From Eledone cirrhosa (Eukaryota), in the NCBI GenBank assembly GCA_964016885.1, contig OZ024740.1, forward strand, positions 213,590,001 through 213,654,000: a stretch of 64,000 nucleotides of DNA, in the 5' to 3' direction. Below the pieces are notes generated by a model. It was given only the letters and a program-made list of their open reading frames with translations. It was not told the DNA's origin and ran no database searches. Below are positions 641-62,171 of the stretch, piece after piece. The number at the start of each line of letters is the position of its first letter. Position 1 is the first letter of the stretch. The translations under genes were made by a program, and so were the position numbers.

Positions 641-3600
641 CAGACAATCCGAACTTATACGGAAGGGAGCACAGACAGTCGGAACATATACGGAAGGGAG
701 CACAGACAGTCGGAACTTATACGGAAGGGAGCACAGACAGTCGGAACATATAGGGAAGGGAGCACAGTCAGTCGGAACATATACGGAAGGGAGCACAGAC
801 AGTCGGAACTTATACGGAAGGGAGCACAGACAGTCGGAACATATAGGGAAGGGAGCACAGACAGTCGGAACTTATACGGAAGGGAGCACAGACAGTCGGA
901 ACTTATACGGAAGGGAGCACAGACAGTCGGAACTTATACGGAAGGGAGCACAGACAGTCGGAACATATACGGAAGGGAGCACAGACAGTCGGAACATATA
1001 GGGAAGGGAGCACAGACAGTCGGAACATATAGGGAAGGGAGCACAGTCAGTCGGAACATATAGGGAAGGGAGCACAGACAGTCGGAACTTATACGGAAGG
1101 GAGCACAGACAGTCGGAACTTATACGGAAGGGAGCACAGACAGTCGGAACATATACGGAAGGGAGCACACACAGTCGGAACTTATACGGAAGGGAGCACA
1201 GACAGTCGGAACATATACGGAAGGGAGCACAGACAGTCGGAACTTATAGGGAAGGGAGCACAGACAGTCGGAACTTATACGGAAGGGAGCACAGACAGTC
1301 GGAACATATAGGGAAGGGAGCACAGACAGTCGGAACTTATACGGAAGGGAGCACAGACAGTCGGAACATATACGGAAGGGAGCACAGACAGTCGGAACTT
1401 ATACGGAAGGGAGCACAGACAGTCGGAACTTATACGGAAGGGAGCACAGACAGTCGGAACATATAGGGAAGGGAGCACAGACAGTCGGAACATATACGGA
1501 AGGGAGCACAGACAGTCGGAACTTATACGGAAGGGAGCACAGACAGTCGGAACATATACGGAAGGGAGCACACACAGTCGGAACTTATACGGAAGGGAGC
1601 ACAGACAGTCGGAACTTATACGGAAGGGAGCACACACAGTCGGAACATATAGGGAAGGGAGCACAGACAGTCGGAACTTATACGGAAGGGAGCACACACA
1701 GTCGGAACATATACGGAAGGGAGCACAGACAGTCGGAACTTATACGGAAGGGAGCACAGACAGTCGGAACATATACGGAAGGGAGCACAGACAGTCGGAA
1801 CATATACGGAAGGGAGCACAGACAGTCGGAACTTATACGGAAGGGAGCACACACAGTCGGAACATATACGGAAGGGAGCACAGACAGTCGGAACTTATAC
1901 GGAAGGGAGCACAGACAGTCGGAACATATACGGAAGGGAGCACAGACAGTCGGAACTTATACGGAAGGGAGCACAGACAGTCGGAACATATACGGAAGGG
2001 AGCACAGACAGTCGGAACTTATACGGAAGGGAGCACAGACAGTCGGAACATATACGGAAGGGAGCACAGACAGTCGGAACTTATACGGAAGGGAGCACAG
2101 ACAGTCGGAACTTATACGGAAGGGAGCACACACAGTCGGAACTTATACGGAAGGGAGCACAGACAGTCGGAACATATAGGGAAGGGAGCACAGACAGTCG
2201 GAACTTATACGGAAGGGAGCACACACAGTCGGAACATATACGGAAGGGAGCACAGACAGTCGGAACATATAGGGAAGGGAGCACAGACAGTCGGAACATA
2301 TAGGGAAGGGAGCACACACAATCCGAACTTATACGGAAGGGAGCACAGACAGTCGGAACATATAGGGAAGGGAGCACAGACAGTCGGAACTTATACGGAA
2401 GGGAGCACACACAGTCGAAACTTATACGGAAGGGAGCACAGACAGTCGGAACATATAGGGAAGGGAGCACAGACAGTCGGAACTTATACGGAAGGGAGCA
2501 CACACAGTCGGAACATATACGGAAGGGAGCACAGACAGTCGGAACATATAGGGAAGGGAGCACACACAATCCGAACTTATACGGAAGGGAGCACAGACAG
2601 TCGGAACATATAGGGAAGGGAGCACAGACAGTCGGAACATATAGGGAAGGGAGCACACACAATCCGAACTTATACGGAAGGGAGCACAGACAGTCGGAAC
2701 ATATAGGGAAGGGAGCACAGACAGTCGGAACTTATACGGAAGGGAGCACACACAGTCGGAACATATACGGAAGGGAGCACAGACAGTCGGAACATATAGG
2801 GAAGGGAGCACACACAATCCGAACTTATACGGAAGGGAGCACAGACAGTCGGAACATATAGGGAAGGGAGCACAGACAGTCGGAACATATAGGGAAGGGA
2901 GCACACACAATCCGAACTTATACGGAAGGGACCACACACAGTCGGAACTTATACGGAAGGGAGCACAGACAGTCGGAACATATAGGGAAGGGAGCACAGA
3001 CAGTCGGAACATATACGGAAGGGAGCACAGACAGTCGGAACATATACGAAAGGGAGCACACAGTCGGAACTTATACGGAAGGGAGCACAGACAGTCGGAA
3101 CATATACGAAAGGGAGCACACAGTCGGAACATATACGGAAGGGAGCACAGACAGTCGGAACATATACGGAAGGGAGCACAGACAGTTGGAACATATAGGG
3201 AAGGGAGCACAGACAGTCGGAACTTATACGGAAGGGAGCACAGACAGTCGGAACTTATACGGAAGGGAGCACAGACAGTCGGAACTTATACGGAAGGGAA
3301 CACAGACAGTCGGAACTTATACGGAAGGGAACACAGACAGTCGGAACATATACGGAAGGGAGCACAGACAGTCGGAACTTATACGGAAGGGAGCACAGAC
3401 AGTCGGAACTTATACGGAAGGGAGCACAGACAGTCGGAACATATACGGAAGGGAGCACAGACAGTCGGAACTTATACGGAAGGGAGCACAGACAGTCGGA
3501 ACTTATACGGAAGGGAGCACACACAGTCGGAACTTATACGGAAGGGAGCACAGACAGTCGGAACTTATACGGAAGGGAACACAGACAGTCGGAACTTATA

Positions 3601-4536
3601 CGGAAGGGAGCACACACAGTCGGAACTTATACGGAAGGGAGCACAGACAGTCGGAACTTATACGGAAGGAAGCACACACAGTCGGAACATATACGGAAGG
3701 GAGCACAGACAGTCGGAACTTATACGGAAGGGAGCACAGACAGTCGGAACATATACGGAAGGGAGCACACACAGTCGGAACTTATACGGAAGGGAGCACA
3801 GACAGTCGGAACTTATACGGAAGGGAGCACAGACAGTCGGAACATATACGGAAGGGAGCACAGACAGTCGGAACATATAGGGAAGGGAGCACAGACAGTC
3901 GGAACATATAGGGAAGGGAGCACAGACAGTCGGAACATATAGGGAAGGGAGCACAGACAGTCGGAACATATAGGGAAGGGAGCACAGACAGTCGGAACAT
4001 ATAGGGAAGGGAGCACAGACAGTCGGAACATATACGGAAGGGAGCACAGACAGTCGGAACATATAGGGAAGGGAGCACAGACAGTCGGAACATATACGGA
4101 AGGGAGCACAGACAGTCGGAACATATAGGGAAGGGAGCACAGACAGTCGGAACATATACGGAAGGGAGCACACACAGTCGGAACTTATACGGAAGGGAGC
4201 ACAGACAGTCGGAACTTATACGGAAGGGAGCACAGACAGTCGGAACATATACGGAAGGGAGCACAGACAGTCGGAACATATAGGGAAGGGAGCACAGACA
4301 GTCGGAACTTATACGGAAGGGAGCACAGACAGTCGGAACATATAGGGAAGGGAGCACAGACAGTCGGAACATATAGGGAAGGGAGCACAGACAGTCGGAA
4401 CATATAGGGAAGGGAGCACAGACAGTCGGAACATATACGGAAGGGAGCACAGACAGTCGGAACTTATACGGAAGGGAGCACAGACAGTCGGAACTTATAC
4501 GGAAGGGAGCACAGACAGTCGGAACTTATACGGAAG
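641..4536. repeat. 31-bp minisatellite, about 125 copies
   Basis: Unit cagacagtcggaac(t/a)tata(c/g)ggaagggagca repeated head to tail; explains all the repetitive ORFs in this interval. Confidence 0.98.
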
Positions 4537-10422: not shown

Positions 10423-10473
10423 TATATAATATACGATATTAACAAATGCAAACTATATTTATAAAACCATATT

Positions 10474-10538
10474 TATTTCATTATACATATTTCAAGGACA
10501 CCAAGTTAAATTATGGTGTGCTTTCTTCAGATAAAATA
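10474..10538 (-). ncRNA. Type I hammerhead ribozyme motif
   Basis: UAUUUUAU-CUGAAGA-AAGCACACCA/UGGUGUCCUU-GAAA-UAUGUA-UA-AUGAAAUA: intact core, 8-bp stem I, 9 of 10 pairs in stem II. Confidence 0.75.
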
Positions 10539-10759
10539 TAATATAGAGCAGTTTTATAAATAAATATTGACATACCCTTAAAGAATGCGACCATTACTGT
10601 TGGAAGCTCCTTGAAATATGTATAATGAAATAAATATGGTTTTATAAATATAGTTTCCATTTGTTAATATCGTATTTTTACTCCAATTATTTGTTGAGTG
10701 CTTTATATCAGTTATAAAAATATTTGCTTGTTGTATCCCAACAATTTAAATAGAATTTC

Positions 10760-13696: not shown

Positions 13697-14513
13697 GTCT
13701 AACTTCCACTAATGTCTAACTTCCACTACACTCCACCATTGTCTAACTTCCACTACAGTCTACCGTTGTCTAACTTCCACTATTGTCTAACTGCCACTAC
13801 ACTCCACCACTGTCTAACTTCCACTACAGTCCACCATTGTCTAACTTCCACTACAGTCTACTAATGTCTAACTTCCACAACAGTCCACCAATGTCTAACT
13901 TCCACTACAGTCCAACACTGTCTAACTTCCACTACAGTCCACCATTGTCTAACTTCCACTACAGTCCACTAATGTCTAACTTCCACTACAGTCCACTAAT
14001 GTCTAACTTATACAACAGTCCACTAATGTCTAACTTCCACTACAGTCCACCATTGTCTAACTTCCACTACAGTCCACCATTGTCTAACTTCCACTACAGT
14101 CTACCATTGTCTAACTTCTACTACAGTCCACCATTGTCTAACTTCCACTACAGTCCACTAATGTCTAACTTCCACTACAGTCCACTAATGTTTAACTTCC
14201 ACAACAGTCCACTAATGTCTAACTTCCACTACAGTCCACTAATGTCTAACTTACACAACAGTCCACTAATGTCTAACTTCCAGAACAGTCCACTAATGTT
14301 TAACTTCCACTACAGTCTACCATTGTCTAACTTCCACTACAGTCCACTAATGTTTAACTTCCCCAACAGTCCACTAGTGTCTAACTTCCATTACAGTCCA
14401 CTAATGTTTAACTTCCACTACAGTCCACTAATGTTTAACTTCCCCAACAGTCCACTAATGTCTAACTTCCATTACAGTCCACCATTGTCTAACTTCCACT
14501 ACAGTCCACCATT
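13697..14513. repeat. 27-bp minisatellite, about 30 copies
   Basis: Unit tgtctaacttccactacagtccac(c/t)a(t/a). Confidence 0.97.
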
Positions 14514-27407: not shown

Positions 27408-27628
27408 CTACGATGGACACATGTGCTGAGCTCGCTCGGTAAGTTTTTGTTTAAATTCATACGGAAATTGTAAACTGTAAACTTTCATTTTTGTACCATT
27501 TTGTAGAGGGACTGCCAGGTCAAATTTTGATCTGGTCGGTCTCTCAAAATATTCTGCGCCTTTGGGCGAAATAGTATTGTGAACATTTTATCTTTCGAAA
27601 AACTTCGAAAAACCCTATTTTGAGAAAA

Positions 27629-27805
27629 ATGGCTGAAGCATCTTCACCATCAATCAAAGAAGGAAAGGGGAAGTCATACTCACAGCTTCCCCCTGCCACT
27701 GTCACAGCAGCAGATGCCAAAGGCAGAGGTCAGAGAGAGGAAGAATTGTCTTCACCTGTTGACCGACCACTAGATGTAGCCACAACTACACAAGAATTTG
27801 AAAAC

Positions 27806-27836
<31 letters not shown>

Positions 27837-29173
27837 GCAACAATAAAGACAACAAAAACAACAACAACACAAACGTCACAAGTATCCACACACGAAACGA
27901 GAAAGACAACAACAACAACAAAGAGGAAAACAACTCAAACGACGAGAAACAAAACAATACTAATATCCAAAACGAAAACAAAATATCTTTTGCACAAACG
28001 GCTAAATTATCAGTCGCTTATGTGCTGGAAGATATTTCAAAAGCAAAAGAAATGCTGGAAAAAGCCAAGAAATATGTGTCTTTTGGCGAAAACGGATCGT
28101 TTTCTATACATTCACCTCCGGAGCTAAAAAGACAGACGGAATTACGAACTGTCGTATTCCGAACAATTTTAAATAAAACAAAGAAACCAGCGCAACCATC
28201 TCAAGCGGAAACTCAGTTAGTCTTGAAAGACGCGATGAGAGACATCACTTTCATACAAAAGGATAAACTCTATGGGAGTTTATCCATATTGATGAAAGAC
28301 GAATTGGCGGCAAAAAAATACTCTGTGTCGCCAATTCGGTCCACACACTACACCTTCTTCCCCACCTACATGGGTAAAAAAACCCAGAGGATATGGATAA
28401 CCACCATCACCCCAAACATAAACTACTGGTGGTTACTAACCGGTTTCCTCAATTTAGACGAGGACAACCTCATCTCAATAGGGAAGGCATCCGGCGACGC
28501 GTTCAGTGGAACGAGCCTCGAAGTTCTGACCCAAATAAGGCCAGAACGCATCGCCCAAATCCCTGAGCGCGTCATGCTGGATGACCGTACCCACCTCAAC
28601 ATTATTGTGGAGGGTATGCATCCCTCCTGTTACCTCTGTGGAAATAGAGGTCACCTGAGGGCTGCCTGTCCCCAGCTCACACAGAAAAAAACACTGCTAC
28701 CAACACCAACACCACCCCAACTACAACAACAAAAACAACCACAACAACAACAAAAACCAACAACCCCACCACCACCACCACAACAACAACAACAACAAAC
28801 ACGTGAAAAAATAACACAGAATACTGTCCCACCCAATCCCTCCCCACCCAAAACAAATACAAAAACACGCACACCGCAAACACTACCAGAAAACATACCC
28901 CTCCCACCCAACGAGGAAGACGAACCTCTTTCGTCGCAAGACGAAAAAGATCCCTTCCAACAAGTAAAAAGAAAGAAGAGGAGACGCACCACAGACACAC
29001 ATGTTAACTTTAACCCCCCCCCCCCAAGAGAACACAAACTACACACAAACCACCCCTCCCTGTCACACAACACTAACTGCTACACAAAAAAAGACCTTAC
29101 AATACACATACATGAACACAGACAACAAAGAATTACGGAAAACAATTTCAGCAAACCCTTCGGTCCAAACTGA
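27629..29173 (+). CDS. Tx1 ORF1 (gag-like, CCHC zinc knuckle); probably extended to 29482 before two poly-C frameshifts
   Basis: ATG at 27629; CYLCGNRGHLRAAC knuckle; N-, Q- and P-rich low-complexity segments. Confidence 0.85.
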
Positions 29174-29506
29174 AGGGCCAAACTTTATAACTGCTGTGGG
29201 ACTACCTCATTTGAAAATGATAAAAGTCCCAATGCACTTGTACAAAACACTGAAAATAAATTTCACGGAGGACGTGGGCCCCCCTGCGCCAAACCAATCA
29301 ACCGCGTCCTCCTAAAAAATTTCACCCCCCCACCCCACCCAGACACCCACTCAACGACAAACACCCCAACCCCACAACACACCGATGCCCCTTCACTTCC
29401 ACAAACCACCACCCCACCCAACAACCCATCCCCAACCAGCATGGAAATTGAGCGGCCCGTTTCCCGGGACGCAGAGAGGTAAGTGCCTTTTCTCTTTACC
29501 ACCAAC

Positions 29507-32500
29507 ATGGCTGTGCTAAGAGTAGGGTGTCTAAATGCGCGTGGCCTGGGCTCGTCTTGGAAGCAAGCAATGCTTCTAAATGACCTCAGGTCACAATCTA
29601 TAAATGTGGTTATCTGCGAGGCCCGGATCAGCAGCATGCGACAGCTAGCCCCCACCTTTGACGACTTTGAGATGCACGCATCTCTCTGTCAGCCCGGAGG
29701 TGGGGGTGGGGTTGTCGTTCTGCTGCAAAAACATATGGGCCTTGCAACACAGATAGTTCACTTGGACCCAGGGGGTCGACTGGTGGTGCTGGACCTTGGC
29801 AGTGGTGAAGGTAGAGCCCTTAGGCTGATAGCCGCATATGCCCCTTTTGGGACAGAGCGGCCCGACTTTTTCCAGCGTCTGGAGTCTTTTCTAGGGACGT
29901 CCCGTTCCCTGCTTTTAGTGGGGGATTGGAATGGTATCCTGGATGCACGTTGGGACTATGCAGGGGCATGTCCCGATAGAGAGGGGTGCAACAGCCTCAA
30001 GGGGTTACTCGGCCGATTTGACCTGGCCGATAGATTTCGACTAGATTTTCCGACGGTGCCAACCTGGTCTTGGTCAAATCGCAGCGGATCATCTAGATCG
30101 TACCTAGATAGATTTTTAGTTAGAAATAAGGACAGGGACTTTTTAAGTTGTCCAGAAATGCTCATGGTTGGCTATTCAGACCACAAGTTGGTGACCTGCA
30201 TGGTCAACCTTGATAGAACGCATAGTCAGGGCCCCGGTTACTGGAAGCTCAACTTGTCCTTGCCGGCAAGTAGAGCCTACAGGAATCGGATTAGTACGTT
30301 AGTTAAGGAACGGTTGACTGGAGCGATCGTCAACAGCAGGTGGTGGGTATCTCTAAAGAGAGAGATTAGAGTAGTCTCGATTGAATTTAGTAAGGTTCTA
30401 GCTGCGGATAGGAATAGGAAGGAAAGGGAGCTAATAGATAGAGTAGAAGAGGCAATTAGAAGCGGCGACGTGGCCAGAGTGCTAGCGTCGAGAACGGCTT
30501 TGAGCCAGTTTTTCGACGCGAAGCACGAAGGCTGCGTTGTCCGAAGTAAAATACGTGCTCTAGGGAACGAGGGGGCCAAAGCTGTTAGCTGGGCCCGCGT
30601 GACAGAGGCCAACAGTGGAACTAAATCCACCATCCGGTCTTTGCGAGACCTGGATGGACGGGCGATTCTTGAGCCTAAGCAGATGTGTGAGGCCTTTCAA
30701 AGGCACTTTGCCCGACTGTTCGGGAGGGGCGGGGAGCCGGTTGGAAACGTGGACTTCGGTCCATACCTCGACGGCCTGCCGCGCCTCTCGGACAGGGAGG
30801 CGAAGTCTTGCGAGGAGCCGATTTCGGCCGCTGAGATAGAGGACGTGCTGGGCCAATGCGGCAAACGCAAATCCCCGGGTCTCGATGGTCTTCCTTACGA
30901 ATTATATCTAGCTATGCCGGACTTGTTCCCCGATCTCCTCGAGGCGGTCTACTGCAACTGGCAACAGAACGGGAGAATTCCCTGTACTGTGACCAAGGGC
31001 GTAGTCACGCTAGTGAGGAAGGACGAGAACAAGGGGGACGAAATAAGTAACTTCAGGCCCATAACTCTGCTAAATACAGAGTTACAGATTTTGGCCAAGG
31101 TGCTAGCAAAGAGGTTGGCGCTTGTCGTGGGCAACCTGGTGGGAGATGCGCAGACATGCGCTATCCCGTCCAGGTCCATCCATGACAACCTCCACCTCAT
31201 GCGATACATCATAGAGAGGGTTGGGAACGAACCCGGCTTTGGTGGGGCTCTGATCAACTTGGATCAATCTAAGGCGTTCGATAGGGTCGACCATGGTTAC
31301 GTGGATGCGGTGCTAGCGGCGGCAGGCTTCGGACCCGTTTTCAGGGGCTGGATCACTGCTATGCACAGCAGCCGCATCTGCTCTAGGGTCAAGGTGAATG
31401 GCTACCTCTCGGAGCCGTTCAAAATCGCGCGGTCCATCCGACAAGGGTGCCCTCTCTCCTCCCTTCTGTATGTGTTGACTCTCGAGCCACTACTGCGGAA
31501 GTTGGAGTTGTTGCAGGGCATCCCTTTGGAACCGGGATTGCGGAAAACGGTGTCAGCCTACGCCGATGATGTGACAGTAATGGTGTCGACGGCCTCCGAA
31601 ATCGAGGCGGTCGGCACCTTACTGGAGGAGTACGAAAAGTTCACAGGGGCTAAGCTGAACCGGGACAAGTCGATCGGTTTGCAACTCGGCACGTGGAGGG
31701 GCAGACCGATGCCCTCCGATGGCGTCGTCGGACGCTGGACGGAGGGCCCGGTGAAGTTGCTCGGGGTCTGGTTCGGACCGGACCTCCAGGTGGAGAAAAA
31801 CTGGGCGGAGGTTACGAACAGGGTGTTTGCACTGACCCAGAAGTGGGCCAGTTGCAAACTATCCCTGAAAGGTCGGGCGGAGGTGGCGAACACTTATATA
31901 GCGTCCGTCATCTACTACCGCCTGACCGTAGTGCCCTGCCCAAGGGAAACCCTCACCAAGATGGAGCGCGCGCTCTTCCAATTCCTTTGGAAGGGGCGGG
32001 CTCCTATGGTGAGGAGATCCATCTGCTGTCAACACCCTTCGAAAGGAGGGCTGGGGATGCCGTGGCTAATGATGCGTAAACACGCATTAAGGCTACGGCA
32101 CCTCTACGTATTCCTCACCGGACAACCGGTGTGGGCCTCGTTTGTGAGACGAACCTTTCCCAGACTCGTATCACTCACCGAGCTGCAATCCTGGGTCAAG
32201 CAAAGACCGAGAAAACTGGGCGCCTGGCACACTGAGTGTGCCCAGGCGCTCACCGCCCTCTGGCAGGCGGATCCGGTTATCAGTGGAGACTCCACCGCAA
32301 CATTCTATAGAGGGCTGGTACGCAGCAGGTGCGACGACGCCCTCGGAGAAGCCCTAGACATGGAGGAGGACGAACTGGCCAGCCTGTTCGGTAGGACATT
32401 CAGCCCGGGACCTATGGACAACTTCCAGAAGTCCCTGGCCTGGCAGTGCTACCGAGGGGCTTTACCCGTTCGAGAAAGGCTCTACAGACACGGGCGCCCG

Positions 32501-32725
32501 GGTAGGGACCCCGCCAAAAAGATCTGTCCCAGATGCGTGTGCGACGAGGAAACCGTTGCACACGCATTGGTACACTGCTCGGGCGTAGCCGATCTGTGGG
32601 GCTATGTCGAGGGCTATGTCGAACAACTGCTGTCAAGGGTGGGACCGATCCGGTTGACCACCGAGGATCCGGTTGACCACCGAGTCTATTGTAATGATCA
32701 AGCCGCCTCCCCCCTTCAAAGATGA
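29507..32725 (+). CDS. Tx1 ORF2: AP endonuclease, reverse transcriptase, CCHC finger; C-terminus disrupted (native end about 32972)
   Basis: LNARG, GDWN, YLDRF, SDH (APE); KSPGLDG, FRPITLLN, DQSKAFDRV, RQGCPLS, YADD (RT); CPRC..ETVAHALVHC. Confidence 0.93.
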   Translation: MAVLRVGCLNARGLGSSWKQAMLLNDLRSQSINVVICEARISSMRQLAPTFDDFEMHASLCQPGGGGGVVVLLQKHMGLATQIVHLDPGGRLVVLDLGSGEGRALRLIAAYAPFGTERPDFFQRLESFLGTSRSLLLVGDWNGILDARWDYAGACPDREGCNSLKGLLGRFDLADRFRLDFPTVPTWSWSNRSGSSRSYLDRFLVRNKDRDFLSCPEMLMVGYSDHKLVTCMVNLDRTHSQGPGYWKLNLSLPASRAYRNRISTLVKERLTGAIVNSRWWVSLKREIRVVSIEFSKVLAADRNRKERELIDRVEEAIRSGDVARVLASRTALSQFFDAKHEGCVVRSKIRALGNEGAKAVSWARVTEANSGTKSTIRSLRDLDGRAILEPKQMCEAFQRHFARLFGRGGEPVGNVDFGPYLDGLPRLSDREAKSCEEPISAAEIEDVLGQCGKRKSPGLDGLPYELYLAMPDLFPDLLEAVYCNWQQNGRIPCTVTKGVVTLVRKDENKGDEISNFRPITLLNTELQILAKVLAKRLALVVGNLVGDAQTCAIPSRSIHDNLHLMRYIIERVGNEPGFGGALINLDQSKAFDRVDHGYVDAVLAAAGFGPVFRGWITAMHSSRICSRVKVNGYLSEPFKIARSIRQGCPLSSLLYVLTLEPLLRKLELLQGIPLEPGLRKTVSAYADDVTVMVSTASEIEAVGTLLEEYEKFTGAKLNRDKSIGLQLGTWRGRPMPSDGVVGRWTEGPVKLLGVWFGPDLQVEKNWAEVTNRVFALTQKWASCKLSLKGRAEVANTYIASVIYYRLTVVPCPRETLTKMERALFQFLWKGRAPMVRRSICCQHPSKGGLGMPWLMMRKHALRLRHLYVFLTGQPVWASFVRRTFPRLVSLTELQSWVKQRPRKLGAWHTECAQALTALWQADPVISGDSTATFYRGLVRSRCDDALGEALDMEEDELASLFGRTFSPGPMDNFQKSLAWQCYRGALPVRERLYRHGRPGRDPAKKICPRCVCDEETVAHALVHCSGVADLWGYVEGYVEQLLSRVGPIRLTTEDPVDHRVYCNDQAASPLQR

Positions 32726-43271: not shown

Positions 43272-44405
43272 GTTGTCCGACGCTCTACCGATTCTGCCAA
43301 TCCACCGCCCTAAATGGTTTCTGATATAAGCACAAGGCAAACAATTTTTGGGGAGGGAAAAGTCGATTAAATCGACCCCAGTCCATTACTGGTACTTTAT
43401 TTTATTGACCCCGTAAGGATGAAAGGCAAAGTTAATCTCGATTGGATTTGAACTCAGAACGTAAAGAGCCAGAATAAATATAGCTAAGCATTTTATCAGA
43501 CGCTTTAATTAGTCTTTCTTCCAATTCACATAAAATGTTTTCGTATTTCCAACTCCAAAATTATAACAAAAACAAATATATTTTTTTACAATTATTTTTT
43601 TACAACTTAATGTTTGTGATTATTGTTAAGTTTTGACACGTCTGGAATCTTTTAACACCTTCACAATATTTTCTTCAACTTTGACGTCATCACTATACAA
43701 GTGGACAATTCACCGATATACAACCCACGCACTAAAATATGTTATTTTGTGTCTTCATTACACTCTTTCTCCTTAATATTGCTTAGCTTGCGAAGGATCA
43801 ACGAATAATCAGGCTCACCTACAATCCCAGTAAACAGTATGCTTGGCATCGTTGATATTTATTTTTTCTTTATAACTGGGGTTGTTTTGTCTTTTTTTCT
43901 TTCTTTTTTTTTTAATGTTCCATCGAAGTTTCCCCCTTGTGCGCCCACATACGGCTACGTTTCACAACTAGCACGCAAAAGAAAATAATGGTTTCTGATA
44001 TAGGCACAAGGCCAGCAATTTTTTTTTTTTTTGGGGGGGGGGGGGAGTTGATTAATTCAACCCAATGCGTGACTCGTACTTTATTTTAAAGGCAAAGTTA
44101 ACCTCGACGGAGTTTGAAAACAGAATGTAAAGGGCCGTAACGTAACGTAAAGGGCATGTTGTCCGACGCTCTACCAATACTGCCAGAAAATAATATGGTC
44201 ACTACAGTTTAGTGACTTTGAAATAATTGTTTCTATTTTTGGCACAAGGCCAACAATTATCCCAGTGTATTACTGGTACTTTATTTTATCGACCCCGTCA
44301 GGATGAAGGGCAAAGTTAACCTCGACGGGATTTGAACTCAGACCGTAAAGGGACGTAACTATGCTACAAATCTTTGTGTCTGGCCCTCTACCGATACTGC
44401 CAATT
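43272..44405 (-). mobile_element. Cluster of dominant SINE copies
   Basis: Reverse-complement core at about 43315-43505, 43988-44185 and 44222-44405. Confidence 0.8.
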
Positions 44406-44903: not shown

Positions 44904-45183
44904 TTTGAAGGAAAAATAGGTATATTTTTGTCTATTATTTCCTCATATTTTGTAATTTGATATATATATATATATATAAGTATGTACACGTACATACATA
45001 TATGTATACCGACGTACAGTAGTATGTATATATATATATACATACATGCACACATATATATATGCACGTATGGATTCACCGAACATTTATTATAATGCTC
45101 GGTGTGTTTGTAAACAAACATCCCGTATTAAGCCGTAGTGTCTAGCAACCACCGTTGCTCGTTTGTTCAACACTGACAAAGGA

Positions 45184-45226
45184 ACGCTGTACTAGTTTCA
45201 AGCTTGTTAGCTATCGTCAGCAACGT
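45184..45226 (-). ncRNA. Type I HHR (identical copies at 45606-45648 and 46028-46070)
   Basis: Reverse complement of the motif at 46705-46747. Confidence 0.8.
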
Positions 45227-46704
45227 ATACCTTCCTGCCAGATTGTTGAACGTATATACTTACCTTATGCATATTAACGGCTGAGTAGCCCAATATGCAT
45301 ATCGAGTGGGTTAATCGGCCGGGTGCACCGAAAACGATAAACGGAAAAAATGAAACGATATTTCATTTCCCACTCTTAGTACGGCTGTTACTTAAATATA
45401 AGTATGTACACGTACATACATATATGTATACCGACGTACAGTAGTATGTATATATATATATACATACATGCACACATATATATATGCACGTATGGATTCA
45501 CCGAACATTTATTATAATGCTCGGTGTGTTTGTAAACAAACATCCCGTATTAAGCCGTAGTGTCTAGCAACCACCGTTGCTCGTTTGTTCAACACTGACA
45601 AAGGAACGCTGTACTAGTTTCAAGCTTGTTAGCTATCGTCAGCAACGTATACCTTCCTGCCAGATTGTTGAACGTATATACTTACCTTATGCATATTAAC
45701 GGCTGAGTAGCCCAATATGCATATCGAGTGGGTTAATCGGCCGGGTGCACCGAAAACGATAAACGGAAAAAATGAAACGATATTTCATTTCCCACTCTTA
45801 GTACGGCTGTTACTTAAATATAAGTATGTACACGTACATACATATATGTATACCGACGTACAGTAGTATGTATATATATATATACATACATGCACACATA
45901 TATATATGCACGTATGGATTCACCGAACATTTATTATAATGCTCGGTGTGTTTGTAAACAAACATCCCGTATTAAGCCGTAGTGTCTAGCAACCACCGTT
46001 GCTCGTTTGTTCAACACTGACAAAGGAACGCTGTACTAGTTTCAAGCTTGTTAGCTATCGTCAGCAACGTATACCTTCCTGCCAGATTGTTGAACGTATA
46101 TACTTACCTTATGCATATTAACGGCTGAGTAGCCCAATATGCATATCGAGTGGGTTAATCGGCCGGGTGCACCGAAAACGATAAACGGAAAAAATGAAAC
46201 GATATTTCATTTCCCACTCTTAGTACGGCTGTTACTTAAATATAAGTATGTACACGTACATACATATATGTATACCGACGTACAGTAGTATGTATATATA
46301 TATATACATACATGCACACATATATATATGCACGTATGGATTCACCGAACATTTATTATAATGCTCGGTGTGTTTGTAAACAAACATCCCGTATTAAGCC
46401 GTAGTGTCTAGCATTATAATAAATGTTCGGTGAATCCATACGTGCATATATATATGTGTGCATGTATGTATATATATATATACATACTACTGTACGTCGG
46501 TATACATATATGTATGTACGTGTACATACTTATATTTAAGTAACAGCCGTACTAAGAGTGGGAAATGAAATATCGTTTCATTTTTTCCGTTTATCGTTTT
46601 CGGTGCACCCGGCCGATTAACCCACTCGATATGCATATTGGGCTACTCAGCCGTTAATATGCATAAGGTAAGTATATACGTTCAACAATCTGGCAGGAAG
46701 GTAT

Positions 46705-46747
46705 ACGTTGCTGACGATAGCTAACAAGCTTGAAACTAGTACAGCGT
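46705..46747 (+). ncRNA. Type I HHR (identical copies at 47127-47169 and 47550-47592)
   Basis: ACGUUG-CUGACGA-U AGCU aaca AGCU U-GAAA-CUAG-UA-CAGCGU: 6-bp stem I, intact core, palindromic ACUAGU stem III, GUA site. Confidence 0.8.
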
Positions 46748-47855
46748 TCCTTTGTCAGTGTTGAACAAACGAGCAACGGTGGTTGCTAGACACTACGGCT
46801 TAATACGGGATGTTTGTTTACAAACACACCGAGCATTATAATAAATGTTCGGTGAATCCATACGTGCATATATATATGTGTGCATGTATGTATATATATA
46901 TATACATACTACTGTACGTCGGTATACATATATGTATGTACGTGTACATACTTATATTTAAGTAACAGCCGTACTAAGAGTGGGAAATGAAATATCGTTT
47001 CATTTTTTCCGTTTATCGTTTTCGGTGCACCCGGCCGATTAACCCACTCGATATGCATATTGGGCTACTCAGCCGTTAATATGCATAAGGTAAGTATATA
47101 CGTTCAACAATCTGGCAGGAAGGTATACGTTGCTGACGATAGCTAACAAGCTTGAAACTAGTACAGCGTTCCTTTGTCAGTGTTGAACAAACGAGCAACG
47201 GTGGTTGCTAGACACTACGGCTTAATACGGGATGTTTGTTTACAAACACACCGAGCATTATAATAAATGTTCGGTGAATCCATACGTGCATATATATATG
47301 TGTGCATGTATGTATATATATATATACATACTACTGTACGTCGGTATACATATATGTATGTACGTGTACATACTTATATTTAAGTAACAGCCGTACTAAG
47401 AGTGGGAAATGAAATATCGTTTCATTTTTTTCCGTTTATCGTTTTCGGTGCACCCGGCCGATTAACCCACTCGATATGCATATTGGGCTACTCAGCCGTT
47501 AATATGCATAAGGTAAGTATATACGTTCAACAATCTGGCAGGAAGGTATACGTTGCTGACGATAGCTAACAAGCTTGAAACTAGTACAGCGTTCCTTTGT
47601 CAGTGTTGAACAAACGAGCAACGGTGGTTGCTAGACACTACGGCTTAATACGGGATGTTTGTTTACAAACACACCGAGCATTATAATAAATGTTCGGTGA
47701 ATCCATACGTGCATATATATATGTGTGCATGTATGTATATATATATATACATACTACTGTACGTCGGTATACATATATGTATGTACGTGTACATACTTAT
47801 ATTTAAGTAACAGCCGTACTAAGAGTGGGAAATGAAATATCGTTTCATTTTTTCC

Positions 47856-47911
<56 letters not shown>

Positions 47912-48024: not shown

Positions 48025-48127
48025 ACAAAGGAATATGTAAAAAGCCATGGGTCCGAAAAACCATGGGTCCGGGAAACCAGAGACAGAAAGGGCGGCTGAC
48101 CAACTAGCTTCACAGCCAGCCGCCCAC

Positions 48128-48275
<148 letters not shown>

Positions 48276-48442
48276 GAGGGCGGCTGGCTGTGAAGCTAGT
48301 TGGTCAGCCGCCCTTTCTGTAGGAGGTGAGTTTTATTGTAGCACAATAAAGCAATGCAAATATCGGATAAGTAGCACTCAACAGTTTATAGGACTGGAGT
48401 ATAAATAATATAAGATCAAAAGATGGTTAAAAGAGTTCCATG

Positions 48443-48514
48443 TATTTTATTATGCGAATTTCAAAAACAAATATCATCATTGGGATGATATTTGCGTTCT
48501 CATCAGATAAAATA
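48443..48514 (-). ncRNA. Type I HHR motif (mirror of 48642-48713)
   Basis: UAUUUUAU-CUGAUGA-long stem II-GAAA-UUCGCA-UA-AUAAAAUA. Confidence 0.72.
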
Positions 48515-48641
48515 GGGAGACATGATATGAAGCTTAAAAAACACTTGCGAGCAGTGAAGTGCCAAATCAACGTATAACATACATGTTGATTTGACACTTC
48601 ACTGCTCGCAAGTGTTTTTTAAGCTTCATATCATGTCTCCC

Positions 48642-48713
48642 TATTTTATCTGATGAGAACGCAAATATCATCCTAATGGTGATATTTGCTTTTGAAATGC
48701 GCATAATAAAATA
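48642..48713 (+). ncRNA. Type I HHR motif
   Basis: 8-bp stem I, CUGAUGA at 48650, stem II including GCAAAUAUCA/UGAUAUUUGC, GAAA at 48694, AUGCGCAU stem III, AUA site. Confidence 0.8.
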
Positions 48714-48743
48714 CATGGAACTTTTTTAACCATCTTTTGATTT

Positions 48744-48840
<97 letters not shown>

Positions 48841-48971: not shown

Positions 48972-49768
48972 AAAAACAATGATATAAAAACAAAGAACAA
49001 TTTCCTTATATTAAAAAATTCATCATTTTACGATCGTTTCTAGGATGTATATGTGTGTTGGTATGTATATCATATAGATCTATGTAAAAATATTACAAAT
49101 TATCAGAGGAAATATACATACCTTCACATATACATGCTGTTTTCAGAAATGATGAGATTTGTTTATTGAAAAAAAAACAAAACAAAGGTTTAATATAAAA
49201 GGTTTGTTTGGGAACAGGTTTTGAATTGAGCAATAGAAAAGTAGTTAGAGGTCAAGTTGATAGAATAGTAGTAGTAGAAATTTAATTTAGGGGTAGAGGA
49301 GTGCAGACTTATGTTTTGAATGGAAAGAATACTTTGAATGAAATGAATACTTTGGGGATGACCTCTGGCTTGACCTCTTTTCATCCCCAAAGTATTCATT
49401 TCATTCAAAGTATTCTTTCCATTCAAAACATAAGTCTGCACTCCTCTACCCCTAAATTAAATTTCTACTACCACTATTCCATCAACTTGACCTCTAACTA
49501 CTTTTCTATTGGTCAATTCAAAACCTGTTCCCAAACAAACCTTTTATATTAAACCTTTGTTGTTTTTTTTCAATAAACAAATCTCATCATTTCTGAAGAC
49601 AGCATGTATATGTAAAGGTATGTATATTTCTTCTGATAATTTGTAATATTTTTACATAGATCTATATGATATACATACCAACACACATATACATCCTAGA
49701 AACGATCGTAAAATGACGAATTTTTTAATATAAGGAACTTGTTCTTTGTTTTTATTTCATTGTTTTTC
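48972..49768. repeat. Large fold-back with arms of about 390 bp, containing a mirrored HHR
   Basis: 48972-49361 pairs with 49381-49768 with scattered mismatches. Confidence 0.92.
49587..49716 (+). ncRNA. Type I HHR with a large insertion in loop II (mirror copy 49020-49155 has G8A)
   Basis: UCAUUU-CUGAAGA-CAGCAUGUAUAUGU...ACAUAUACAUCCUA-GAAA-CGAUCG-UA-AAAUGA. Confidence 0.65.
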
Positions 49769-50505: not shown

Positions 50506-51145
50506 GAGTAGATAGATAGATAGAGAACAAAAAGTGAGTAGAATAAAAAGGAGTAGATAAATAGAGAACAAAAAGTGAGTAGAATAAAAAGGAGTAGATA
50601 GATAGAGAACAAAAAGTGAGTAGAATAAAAAGGAGTAGATAGATAGAGAACAAAAAGTGAGTAGAATAAAAAGGAGTAGATAAATAGAGAACAAAAAGTG
50701 AGTAGAATAAAAAGGAGTAGATAGATAGAGAACAAAAAGTGAGTAGAATAAAAAGGAGTAGATAAATAGAGAACAAAAAGTGAGTAGAATAAAAAGGAGT
50801 AGATAAATAGAGAACAAAAAGTGAGTAGAATAAAAAGGAGTAGATAGATAGAGAACAAAAAGTGAGTAGAATATAAAGGAGTAGATAGATAGAGAACAAA
50901 AAGTGAGTAGAATATAAAGGAGTAGATAGATAGAGAACAAAAAGTGAGTAGAATATAAAGGAGTAGATAGATAGAGAACAAAAAGTGAGTAGAATATAAA
51001 GGAGTAGATAGATAGAGAACAAAAAGTGAGTAGAATAAAAAGGAGTAGATAAATAGAGAACAAAAAGTGAGTAGAATAAAAAGGAGTAGATAGATAGAGA
51101 ACAAAAAGTGAGTAGAATAAAAAGGAGTAGATAGATAGATAGAGA
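50506..51145. repeat. 41-bp purine-rich minisatellite, about 15 copies
   Basis: Unit gagtagatagatagagaacaaaaagtgagtagaataaaaag. Confidence 0.97.
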
Positions 51146-51153
51146 AATAAAAG

Positions 51154-51412
51154 CGAGGTCACCTGCTGAGATCATCCTGTTTTGCATCAGATGATGGAGC
51201 TGAACCATTGAAATATGTATAGTGTTTTCACAGAATTAAAATGTACAGCATATCTTTCAATACGGCCTTCTGTTGTCGTTTTAAATATATATATATAAGG
51301 CCGTATTGAAAGATATGCTGTACATTTTAATTCTGTGAAAACACTATACATATTTCAATGGCTCAGCTCCATCATCTGATGCAAAACAGGATGATCTCAG
51401 CAGGTGACCTCG
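51154..51412. repeat. Fold-back carrying mirrored variant HHR scaffolds (51155-51229 +, 51337-51411 -)
   Basis: GAGGUCAC-CUGCUGA...-GAAA-UAUGUA-UA-GUGUUUUC; homologous to the 123-bp unit. Confidence 0.75.
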
Positions 51413-51540: not shown

Positions 51541-54500
51541 TGTGGAAGGAGTGTTTATCTGTCCACTTGTAATCCTGTCAAAGTTACCTGATGAGACCGT
51601 CCTGTCTTGCATCATAATTAGATGATGAAGCTGGGCCATTGGAATATGTAAGTGATGTCACAATGTGGAAGGAGTGTTTATCTGTCCACTTGTAATCCTG
51701 TCAAAGTTACCTGATGAGACCGTCCTGTCTTGCATCATAATTAGATGATGGAGCTGGGCCATTGGAATATGTAAGTGATGTCACAATGTGGAAGGAGTGT
51801 TTATCTGTCCACTTGTAATCCTGTCAAAGTTACCTGATGAGACCGTCCTGTCTTGCATCATAATTAGATGATGAAGCTGGGCCATTGGAATATGTAAGTG
51901 ATGTCACAATGTGGAAGGAGTGTTTATCTGTCCACTTGTAATCCTGTCAAAGTTACCTGATGAGACCGTCCTGTCTTGCATCATAATTAGATGATGGAGC
52001 TGGGCCATTGGAATATGTAAGTGATGTCACAATGTGGAAGGAGTGTTTATCTGTCCACTTGTAATCCTGTCAAAGTTACCTGATGAGACCGTCCTGTCTT
52101 GCATCATAATTAGATGATGGAGCTGGGCCATTGGAATATGTAAGTGATGTCACAATGTGGAAGGAGTGTTTATCTGTCCACTTGTAATCCTGTCAAAGTT
52201 ACCTGATGAGACCGTCCTGTCTTGCATCATAATTAGATGATGAAGCTGGGCCATTGGAATATGTAAGTGATGTCACAATGTGGAAGGAGTGTTTATCTGT
52301 CCACTTGTAATCCTGTCAAAGTTACCTGATGAGACCGTCCTGTCTTGCATCATAATTAGATGATGGAGCTGGGCCATTGGAATATGTAAGTGATGTCACA
52401 ATGTGGAAGGAGTGTTTATCTGTCCACTTGTAATCCTGTCAAAGTTACCTGATGAGACCGTCCTGTCTTGCATCATAATTAGATGATGGAGCTGGGCCAT
52501 TGGAATATGTAAGTGATGTCACAATGTGGAAGGAGTGTTTACCTGTCCACTTGTAATCCTGTCAAAGTTACCTGATGAGACCGTCCTGTCTTGCATCATA
52601 ATTTGATGATGGAGCTGGGCCATTGGAATATGTAAGTGATGTCACAATGTGGAAGGAGTGTTTATCTGTCCACTTGTAATCCTGTCAAAGTTACCTGATG
52701 AGACCGTCCTGTCTTGCATCATAATTTGATGATGGAGCTGGGCCATTGGAATATGTAAGTGATGTCACAATGTGGAAGGAGTGTTTATCTGTCCACTTGT
52801 AATCCTGTCAAAGTTACCTGATGAGACCGTCCTGTCTTGCATCATAATTTGATGATGGAGCTGGGCCATTGGAATATGTAAGTGATGTCACAATGTGGAA
52901 GGAGTGTTTATCTGTCCACTTGTAATCCTGTCAAAGTTACCTGATGAGACCGTCCTGTCTTGCATCATAATTTGATGATGGAGCTGGGCCATTGGAATAT
53001 GTAAGTGATGTCACAATGTGGAAGGAGTGTTTATCTGTCCACTTGTAATCCTGTCAAAGTTACCTGATGAGACCGTCCTGTCTTGCATCATAATTTGATG
53101 ATGGAGCTGGGCCATTGGAATATGTAAGTGATGTCACAATGTGGAAGGAGTGTTTACCTGTCCACTTGTAATCCCGTCAAAGTTACCTGATGAGACCGTC
53201 CTGTCTTGCATCATAATTTGATGATGGAGCTGGGCCATTGGAATATGTAAGTGATGTCACAATGTGGAAGGAGTGTTTATCTGTCCACTTGTAATCCTGT
53301 CAAAGTTACCTGATGAGACCGTCCTGTCTTGCATCATAATTTGATGATGGAGCTGGGCCATTGGAATATGTAAGTGATGTCACAATGTGGAAGGAGTGTT
53401 TATCTGTCCACTTGTAATCCTGTCAAAGTTACCTGATGAGACCGTCCTGTCTTGCATCATAATTTGATGATGGAGCTGGGCCATTGGAATATGTAAGTGA
53501 TGTCACAATGTGGAAGGAGTGTTTATCTGTCCACTTGTAATCCTGTCAAAGTTACCTGATGAGACCGTCCTGTCTTGCATCATAATTTGATGATGGAGCT
53601 GGGCCATTGGAATATGTAAGTGATGTCACAATGTGGAAGGAGTGTTTATCTGTCCACTTGTAATCCTGTCAAAGTTACCTGATGAGACCGTCCTGTCTTG
53701 CATCATAATTTGATGATGGAGCTGGGCCATTGGAATATGTAAGTGATGTCACAATGTGGAAGGAGTGTTTATCTGTCCACTTGTAATCCTGTCAAAGTTA
53801 CCTGATGAGACCGTCCTGTCTTGCATCATAATTTGATGATGGAGCTGGGCCATTGGAATATGTAAGTGATGTCACAATGTGGAAGGAGTGTTTATCTGTC
53901 CACTTGTAATCCTGTCAAAGTTACCTGATGAGACCGTCCTGTCTTGCATCATAATTTGATGATGGAGCTGGGCCATTGGAATATGTAAGTGATGTCACAA
54001 TGTGGAAGGAGTGTTTATCTGTCCACTTGTAATCCTGTCAAAGTTACCTGATGAGACCGTCCTGTCTTGCATCATAATTAGATGATGGAGCTGGGCCATT
54101 GGAATATGTAAGTGATGTCACAATGTGGAAGGAGTGTTTACCTGTCCACTTGTAATCCCGTCAAAGTTACCTGATGAGACCGTCCTGTCTTGCATCATAA
54201 TTTGATGATGGAGCTGGGCCATTGGAATATGTATAGTGATGTCACAATGTGGAAGGAGTGTTTACCTGTCCACTTGTAATCCTGTCAAAGTTACCTGATG
54301 AGACCGTCCTGTCTTGCATCATAATTTGATGATGGAGCTGGGCCATTGGAATATGTAAGTGATGTCACAATGTGGAAGGAGTGTTTACCTGTCCACTTGT
54401 AATCCTGTCAAAGTTACCTGATGAGACCGTCCTGTCTTGCATCATAATTTGATGATGAAGCTGGGCCATTGGAATATGTAAGTGATGTCACAATGTGGAA

Positions 54501-54985
54501 GGAGTGTTTACCTGTCCACTTGTAATCCTGTCAAAGTTACCTGATGAGACCGTCCTGTCTTGCATCATAATTAGATGATGGAGCTGGGCCATTGGAATAT
54601 GTAAGTGATGTCACAATGTGGAAGGAGTGTTTACCTGTCCACTTGTAATCCTGTCAAAGTTACCTGATGAGACCGTCCTGTCTTGCATCATAATTTGATG
54701 ATGGAGCTGGGCCATTGGAATATGTAAGTGATGTCACAATGTGGAAGGAGTGTTTACCTGTCCACTTGTAATCCTGTCAAAGTTACCTGATGAGACCGTC
54801 CTGTCTTGCATCATAATTTGATGATGGAGCTGGGCCATTGGAATATGTAAGTGATGTCACAATGTGGAAGGAGTGTTTACCTGTCCACTTGTAATCCTGT
54901 CAAAGTTACCTGATGAGACCGTCCTGTCTTGCATCATAATTTGATGATGGAGCTGGGCCATTGGAATATGTAAGTGATGTCACAA
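51541..54985 (+). repeat. 123-bp satellite, 28 copies; unit is a degenerate HHR scaffold
   Basis: Period 123 from tgtggaaggag at 51541; GUUAC-CUGAUGA-hairpin-GGAA-UAUGUA-A-GUGAU in each unit. Confidence 0.95.
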
Positions 54986-61243: not shown

Positions 61244-61559
61244 TAACAGATTAAAGTTTAAGCAAAGAATCGCTGCTTTCACCCTTAGCGGGATCTTCTG
61301 AAACTAAAAAAATCAATCTGTGAACGCAGATGTAAATATTTCGAAAAACGTTATTAATTAAAAGTTGGTTAGAAGCGAAGTCAATGCAGACAGGCAACCA
61401 GGCAGACAGATATTATAAATTTAGAAGACAAAAATACCCTCGCTTTCTTACATGGAAAAAGTTACATCTATGGTGCAAATTTGGTGCTGTTTGGTCCAGC
61501 CGTTTGGCGAAAAAGTTTGTTACATACGTACAGCCGTCAGCTTTGTAATATAGATATGT

Positions 61560-62171
61560 ATGTATCCCGCTGCAACACTTGTCCCTTTATTTCCACCCTC
61601 ACCACTCTTACAGGCTCTAACGGGTCTTTCCGTATCCGCCATTCCTTCACCTGCACATCCACCCACGTTGTCTACGCCCTCCGGTGTTCCCTTTGCGGGT
61701 CTTTATATATCGGACAAACACTTGAGGGAAATACGACTCGGTTTGGTTACTCCTGTCGCCCGTCATTTCTGTTCTCCTGGTCATTCTTCCCTACATGTTT
61801 CAGTCCTGGGTGTCCTTTTATATCGTGGATCACAGGCCTCGCGGACCAGGACTGAGCAAAGTCTGATTCACCGCCTTGGGTCCTATTCCCCTCTTGGACT
61901 CAACTCACCTCCCCAATTTCTCTAATACCCCGTCCATTAACACACCCTTAGATTCCTATCTCTTTCTCTTGATCATTAGCAGCTTCTCTTACAACTAATA
62001 CATGCCGACTATATATGCTCACTCCACTTTTCCCTTCACTGCTCTATATACACACATACACACCCTTACATTAACATATTTTTGCTCATAGCTTCGTACT
62101 TACATGCACACAAACTCTTTTACTCACATACACACACACATTTCTTCTTAGCTTCGTACGGACGTATAATA

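Follow-up and report, generated by a model that had tools for sequence, protein, structure and literature searches.

A mirrored array of hammerhead-bearing 422-bp repeats in Eledone cirrhosa, likely inserted by a Penelope-type enzyme acting in trans

The 64,000-nucleotide stretch of Eledone cirrhosa DNA analyzed here, hereafter the window, contains two adjoining tandem arrays of the same 422-bp unit in opposite orientations. TRF detected the 422-bp period at positions 44974-46413 (3.4 copies, 100% matches) and again at 46410-47861 (3.4 copies, 99% matches), in agreement with the initial annotation, which had described a unit repeated 3.4 times and then 3.4 times inverted. The left arm (44974..46413, 3.41 units) has its ribozyme sense on the minus strand and the right arm (46410..47861, 3.44 units) on the plus strand. 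No differences were found among the left-arm units, and one unit of the right arm measures 423 bp, its poly-T run being longer by one T. As had also been noted before, the array is bounded by (TA)n on both flanks, these target tracts lying at 44959..44976 on the left and, as (TA)25, at 47859..47908 on the right. Units were numbered from 46742, the first base after a predicted cut. One cut-to-cut monomer spans 46742..47163 on the plus strand (422 nt, 38% GC), and only two such complete monomers exist per arm. This monomer has a strong predicted fold (z -7.4) and is 71% paired when folded as a circle. There is no ORF in the array, the longest stop-to-stop frame in a unit trimer being 53 aa.

The left arm runs from an outer end at approximately unit position 216 to an inner end at 43, and the right arm from an inner end at 91 to an outer end at 275. 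They meet at a 4-bp overlap common to both (46410..46413), a microhomology, and at unequal unit phases. The longest mirror register pairs 44974-46365 with 46410-47802 (1392 bp, 0 mismatches, 1 gap), leaving a 44-nt loop at the center and an unpaired overhang of 59 nt on the right. Thus, the 2.9-kb palindrome of the initial annotation holds as to its inverted arms but is not a perfect mirror. The overhang (47803..47861, plus strand, unit positions 217-275) forms a tail at the right outer end only; it contains a short hairpin and would correspond to the stretch separating two reverse transcriptase (RT) start sites.

A descriptor scan recovered six type I hammerhead motifs in the array, at the places and with the plus-strand cut positions previously announced. 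On the plus strand they lie at 46705..46747 (CTGACGA core at 46711, predicted cut after 46741), 47127..47169 (core 47133, predicted cut after 47163) and 47550..47592 (core 47556, predicted cut after 47586). Those on the minus strand are at 45184..45226 (core 45220, predicted cut between 45190 and 45189), 45606..45648 (core 45642, predicted cut between 45612 and 45611) and 46028..46070 (core 46064, predicted cut between 46034 and 46033). Each has a stem I of 6 bp (one G-U pair), a stem II of 4 bp, an ACUAGU stem III and a GUA triplet. The pair closing stem II is U.U, not G-C; a U.U at the base of helix II has been reported in the axolotl HHR_Amex2 (PMC7229834). Stem III is palindromic. It is too weak to fold by itself, but two copies can pair with each other (the short duplex has -6.8 kcal/mol), as in the dimeric type I hammerhead design (PMC4209133). 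When the unit was shuffled by mononucleotides 20,000 times, the descriptor matched once; applied to the whole window, it returned three unrelated hammerheads besides these six. The Rfam scan of the window gave 0 hits at the gathering threshold, and therefore the ribozyme call rests on the descriptor and on the covariation considered below.

The array is far from unique in the 3.0-Gb genome. The ribozyme core has 24,001 exact occurrences, and a 291-bp query returned 838 candidates, of which the 40 that were scored are all 100% identical. Exact junctions of the unit end at 275 with TA number 3,556, and those of the end at 216, in its young variant, 1,427; the reversed-pattern control gave 0 genome-wide in both cases. 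These patterns required TA, and the partner ends not anchored in this way likewise lie on (TA)n. AT-rich microsatellites are the targets, as expected of a non-autonomous Penelope-like element (PLE). The high number of dispersed cores, together with arrays that terminate directly on (TA)n, is also what would be expected of a non-LTR element. We conclude that the array in the window is one recent, unmutated insertion of an abundant non-coding hammerhead tandem repeat, ordinary in its family.

By anatomy, this family is a non-LTR retrozyme. Published non-LTR retrozymes (PMC7229834; 10.64898/2026.07.22.740005) are non-coding tandem units of 150-450 bp with GC under 45-50%, have one canonical type I hammerhead per unit and a highly self-paired monomer, and reach thousands of copies. 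The non-coding unit described here, with 422 bp and 38% GC, falls within these limits, and the descriptor places three consecutive hammerheads in each arm, where at least two are expected. Published accounts describe head-to-tail repeats, whereas the portions of these two sources consulted mention neither double arrays in inverted orientation nor a fixed pair of ends, a tail or targeting of (TA)n. In the same portions, the word "inverted" has no use in PMC7229834 and one, in a reference title, in 10.64898/2026.07.22.740005, where "tail" has none. Moreover, RNA circles have been demonstrated for published retrozymes, whereas those of the present array are predicted.

A sister family with a unit of 466-470 bp, 63% identical, is also abundant and also forms minus-then-plus arrays. 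A DNA similarity search with a sister-family stretch gave 0 matches, yet a pattern search gave thousands. Most of 11,279 further cores belong to this family, a count that includes variants nearer to the 422-bp family. The 422-bp and sister units are collinear, with homologous end sites, and unit positions 200-340 are the part most conserved between them. In the sister family (L246-L275, L205, L092, L127) stem III is the same ACUAGU and a G-C pair closes stem II; its dual ends are homologous, its tail has approximately 72 nt, and one array consists of 31 units followed by an inverted copy. An older 487-bp subfamily, 81% identical, was found at L205:4500-6120 (minus), mirrored with 275-type and 216-type ends and nested with a sister-family copy inside one (TA)n tract, which indicates that such tracts are insertion hot spots. 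A third hammerhead tandem family, with 310-bp spacing and an ACGCGU stem III, occurs at L165:143-763, L280:7148-7833 and L039:6953, and is mirrored in L280. Across 22 representative units, 20 of 76 consensus pairs vary on both sides, including pairs of hammerhead stems I and II, in a structure predicted from the same alignment without a control. Most of these paired changes separate the 422-bp and sister families and therefore represent few independent events. The stems of the predicted ribozymes appear to have been kept through compensating changes between families 63% identical.

The outer ends of mirrored copies follow a pairing rule. Among 44 ends anchored at 275, taken from the first 40 loci listed on contig C1 (L067 was read separately), an inverted arm is present in 26, which is the inverted 5'-truncated copy beside a forward copy expected of non-autonomous PLEs; by the chaining used, the other 18 have none. 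The outer end of the inverted arm is at 216 in 24 of these 26, elsewhere in two and at 275 in none. Two pairs of mirrors are local duplicates, so that about 22 events are represented. In the reciprocal sample, 36 ends anchored at 216 were analyzed from the first 50 places listed, also on contig C1: the partner end is at 271-275 in 16, at 216 in two (L120 and L136) and elsewhere in seven, while eight have no inverted arm and three were unresolved. The 14 places left out were already in hand or lay less than 1 kb from an opposite-facing 275 end, and since some adjoin such ends their omission biases against the rule. All eight young mirrors of the best-hit set, the one in the window included, are of the 216/275 type. 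Therefore, in mirrored copies one arm ends at 216 and the other 59 nt further on, at 275, both on (TA)n, which amounts to the two fixed 3' ends and one-sided tail of a non-autonomous PLE.

The mirror form is thus the routine insertion scar of the family and not a selected hairpin. The initial annotation had viewed the locus as a special one, serving both as a source of circular RNA and as a 1.4-kb hairpin for silencing or editing. A fold-back of 1392 bp is indeed possible, and mirrored copies are so common that dsRNA from some of them is plausible. On the other hand, the mirror is the family default and this copy matches other young ones, so nothing marks it as selected; the idea is unsupported and we consider a selected regulatory locus very unlikely. 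In a read-through transcript the antisense arm would come first, and its pairing with the ribozymes should then act in competition with cleavage. At a broader scale, the family seeds long inverted repeats over a 3-Gb genome, a potential source of dsRNA and instability.

We also considered that the mirror could be an assembly artifact produced by chimeric fold-back reads, or else a Helitron-like DNA rolling-circle element. Several palindromes do occur in the neighborhood, and TA/TG-rich cores and tandem arrays recall non-autonomous Helitrons. Nevertheless, artifactual fold-backs would not give family-specific unequal ends or locus-specific offset centers. Contigs of public DNA-type runs also contain the 275 end running into (TA)n and opposite-strand joints (X3, possibly the source sample), and an opposite-strand joint is present in one low-depth contig of run X6, which has a different organism code. 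The conserved hammerheads and an end rule common to a PLE argue against a Helitron, and both explanations are highly improbable.

The insertion footprint finds its closest match in EN+ PLEs, especially those of the Hydra clade (PMC8557442, PMC3846280, PMC11167929), with which the array shares partial tandems, a 5'-truncated copy in inverted orientation, a tail restricted to one end, junction microhomology, hammerheads, (TA)n targets (in the Hydra clade) and two internal RT start sites, putative in the array. In purified form, the anole PLE cleaves both strands and extends them; it is a predicted dimer, and has two internal starts whose spacing equals the tail (PMC11167929). The array differs from EN+ PLEs in that both arms are multi-unit arrays of a non-coding unit, with no ORF where an autonomous PLE would have RT plus GIY-YIG; in that the unit is circularly permuted and carries sequence downstream of the tail; and in tail length, 59 nt (about 72 in the sister family) against 30-40. 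Non-autonomous multicopy PLEs are known from Chlamydomonas, and Chlamys elements such as MRC1 are, like the array, head-to-tail multicopy insertions moved by PLEs (PMC8557442). Unlike the array, the Chlamys clade lacks canonical hammerheads, and its non-autonomous elements have 3' ends similar to those of their autonomous partners (PMC8557442), a similarity not observed for the array. In Schistosoma, truncated PLEs give rise to opposite-strand hammerhead pairs (PMC4209133).

The same genome harbors an autonomous Hydra-like PLE family whose intact ORFs encode 821 aa, the 58 copies scored being 96-99% identical. Its copies have tandem pLTRs with a canonical hammerhead and are inserted in (TA)n, and an 86-nt tail is found on exactly one arm in all seven clear mirrors (L165 was left out as too complex). 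The Atlas neighbors of the 821-aa protein belong to GIY-YIG, HTH_animal and RVT_1 families, and the DKT and CxCX5C motifs of the Hydra clade (PMC8557442) were read in its sequence, without a tree. Pfam named none of four PLE-like proteins, with a sub-threshold RVT_1 match for one, and a solved-structure search gave chance matches only. Within the window, 48319-48756 is an ORF-less mirror of a Hydra-like pLTR, approximately 85% identical to that of the 821-aa family, with a hammerhead in each arm (48506 minus, 48650 plus), an 86-nt tail on the left arm only and (TA)n at the right. The window also has, at 61373-61855, part of the GIY-YIG region of a Neptune-like PLE; candidates for this family number more than 12,000 genome-wide.

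Because its two outer ends, fixed, unequal and placed on (TA)n, correspond to those of a PLE from this very genome, the array was likely made by a PLE enzyme acting in trans, and would represent a non-autonomous, ORF-less PLE parasite. The relation to retrozymes and Penelope elements, and the retrotransposed origin, suggested by the initial annotation are accordingly supported by thousands of dispersed copies with PLE-type ends. A pLTR homologous to the 422-bp unit was not found in the five ORF families whose flanks were examined (the Hydra-like 821-aa, two Neptune-like, a third Neptune-like and a second Hydra-like), those flanks being short for two families and the genome containing more families. 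In the stretches examined, the flanks had other hammerheads or none. By comparison, 24 of 57 Xenopus retrozyme families have homology to PLE pLTRs, and PLE mobilization of retrozymes was proposed from such homology and from co-occurrence (10.64898/2026.07.22.740005). Retrozyme copies beside PLE ORFs (L046, L066, L103, L205) were rejected as pLTRs, being nested insertions in (TA)n, and an apparent 2.3-kb gap in L031 turned out to contain more units and no ORF.

Such an insertion might proceed as follows. Multimeric transcripts would self-cleave through dimeric hammerheads and be ligated into 422-nt circles, as in other animal retrozymes. A GIY-YIG/RT PLE protein, probably a dimer, would cut both strands of a (TA)n tract, as the ends suggest, and, judging from the one-each rule, one free 3' end would prime cDNA at 275 and the other at 216 of the same RNA. 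Each RT would read past the ribozyme sites and copy from 0.1 to more than 10 units, and the two cDNA ends would then be joined at an arbitrary phase, via 1-4 nt of microhomology or a short insert. The expected product has the antisense arm first and the sense arm second, and carries the 59-nt tail on one side only. In young copies, the arms overlap by 1-4 nt or are separated by short inserts at the junctions, which lie at scattered phases. In L1 twin priming, both target strands also prime on one RNA, resulting in an inversion with a microhomology join, as proposed here. There, priming occurs first on the poly(A) tail and then at an internal site that varies, so that the copied pieces do not overlap, whereas in the array both priming sites are fixed and the arms copy overlapping sequence.

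For the arms themselves, 43 mirrored loci were given to the analysis and 38 insertions were resolved from 36 of them, five loci being unresolved and two skipped. One arm could have been made by TPRT and the other by fold-back (self-priming) of the cDNA or of antisense RNA, as proposed for rotifer PLEs (PMC3846280). This would account for variants common to both arms, and about 6 of the 38 junctions join nearly equal phases, in a snap-back-like manner. However, in 11 of the 38 mirrors, the one in the window included, neither arm is contained in the other, and either arm may exceed its partner. These 11 cannot be fold-back copies in either direction, which indicates that arms are independent copies and leads us to reject fold-back as a general rule; nor would it explain why the second arm ends on (TA)n at the other of the two fixed positions. 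We therefore regard it as unlikely, and dual priming by a PLE enzyme remains our preferred reading.

As to what was copied, the cut site is crossed by 61 of the 76 arms, and at least two cut sites by 23 of 76. Inner ends within 5 nt of the cut number 3 of 76, against approximately two expected if uniform, and in 77 of 78 distinct units the bases that immediately follow the cut are free of indels. A cleaved linear monomer copied by template jumping is rejected on these grounds, the arms crossing cut sites and the inner ends not being clustered there. In L116, A97G and A344T are present in all seven full units of both arms. The A344T 26-mer occurs 18 times genome-wide, eight of them in L116, and none of the ten singletons has A97G in the same unit; a source monomer with both variants was not found in the assembly. 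This suggests that one template supplied both L116 arms, although arm-to-arm gene conversion could be another source of variants common to both. Likewise, A185G is present in all three units of L037. The long homogeneous array of L032+L141, with more than 25 units, is uniform for a variant. Other arrays are internally mixed (L031, L041, L052, L130), and the ten units of L078:584-4372 alternate two variants (ABAB), so that either a dimer was amplified as a block or a dimeric template was copied. A single monomer circle is insufficient for these cases, which suggests that DNA-level amplification, conversion or multimeric templates also occur.

Local amplification, attested by L078 and the very long arrays, brings in the possibility that a satellite derived from a PLE terminal repeat was amplified in place by unequal crossing-over and later inverted, a satellite scenario having been offered for Xenopus retrozymes (10.64898/2026.07.22.740005). 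However, identical units recur at numerous loci scattered over the genome, the ends join (TA)n precisely in thousands of cases, and mirrors obey the one-each rule. These observations require repeated de novo insertion, and make an origin by amplification in place extremely improbable.

Returning to insertion by a PLE enzyme, we lean slightly towards a circle, copied round and round, as the RT template, while giving serious though lesser weight to an uncleaved multimer. The initial annotation had derived rolling-circle copying of a circular RNA from the non-integer tandem copies. Such copying is plausible from the arms that cross cut sites and from the L116 variants, but non-integer copies alone are no proof, since a multimer predicts the same. 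Dual priming could also take place on a linear, uncleaved multimeric transcript of an existing array, with circles as a side product and no role for the ribozyme in insertion. The anole PLE enzyme prefers uncleaved RNA; its template is unprocessed, and insertion proceeds as usual when the hammerhead is mutated (PMC11167929). Of nine predicted dimers from Xenopus, eight showed no cleavage in vitro (10.64898/2026.07.22.740005). In addition, stems II and III are weak here (U.U closing pair, minimal stem III), the four mixed arrays fit mixed-multimer copying, and possible source arrays such as L032+L141 exist. Against this stand the L116 double variant, present throughout the units of both arms and lacking a source array in the assembly, the similar case of L037, and the compensating changes that keep the ribozyme stems across families. 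This linear version is possible, if somewhat doubtful. Our own full version of circle copying is put forward just as tentatively: a PLE RT/endonuclease dimer would hold one 422-nt RNA circle generated by the ribozyme and prime both (TA)n strands at fixed sites 59 nt apart, and both RTs would go around it by strand displacement, producing the mirror array in a single step. If true, it would account for the inverted repeat and one-sided tail of PLEs, and the arrays would document, across a whole animal genome, the retrotransposition of circular RNA.

The mobilization of retrozymes and the origin of inverted, one-tailed PLE insertions are both posed as open questions in the literature consulted. 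Within that literature (including PMC13282606 and PMC8490949; Repbase, most subscription journals and some supplements lie outside it), we found no account of retrozyme arrays that are mirrored and obey a one-each end rule, nor of octopus retrozymes. Retrozyme anatomy and the one-end tail of PLEs were known; what appears to be new is a family-wide one-each end footprint on a hammerhead retrozyme. Thousands of young copies of an ORF-less hammerhead repeat bear the complete footprint of PLE insertion. The strict pairing of ends constrains the mechanism: both RT start sites known from in vitro work appear to be employed jointly, each by a different target strand. The mechanism, including the copying of circles, is testable in the existing assay with a 422-nt RNA, a (TA)n duplex and intact PLE ORFs of the same genome.

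Other repeats surround the array in the window. Palindromes at 48083-48320, 48972-49767 and 51154-51412, all within 3.5 kb, are probably further PLE-type mirror insertions; the last resembles part of an adjoining 123-bp unit, present in 28 copies at 51541-54985 (99% matches), which has CTGATGA and in which the descriptor identified no hammerhead. At 10470-10540 (minus) there is a solitary type I hammerhead whose stem III is palindromic, with relatives in L033, L093 (a mirror pair) and L154. A LINE at 27575-32725, which we take to be L1/Tx1-like, has a 532-aa ORF1-like frame and a 1080-aa endonuclease/RT frame, and 43377-44359 is presumably a SINE. Minisatellites with periods of 31, 27 and 41 bp were found at 641-4536, 13776-14509 and 50513-51139, respectively.
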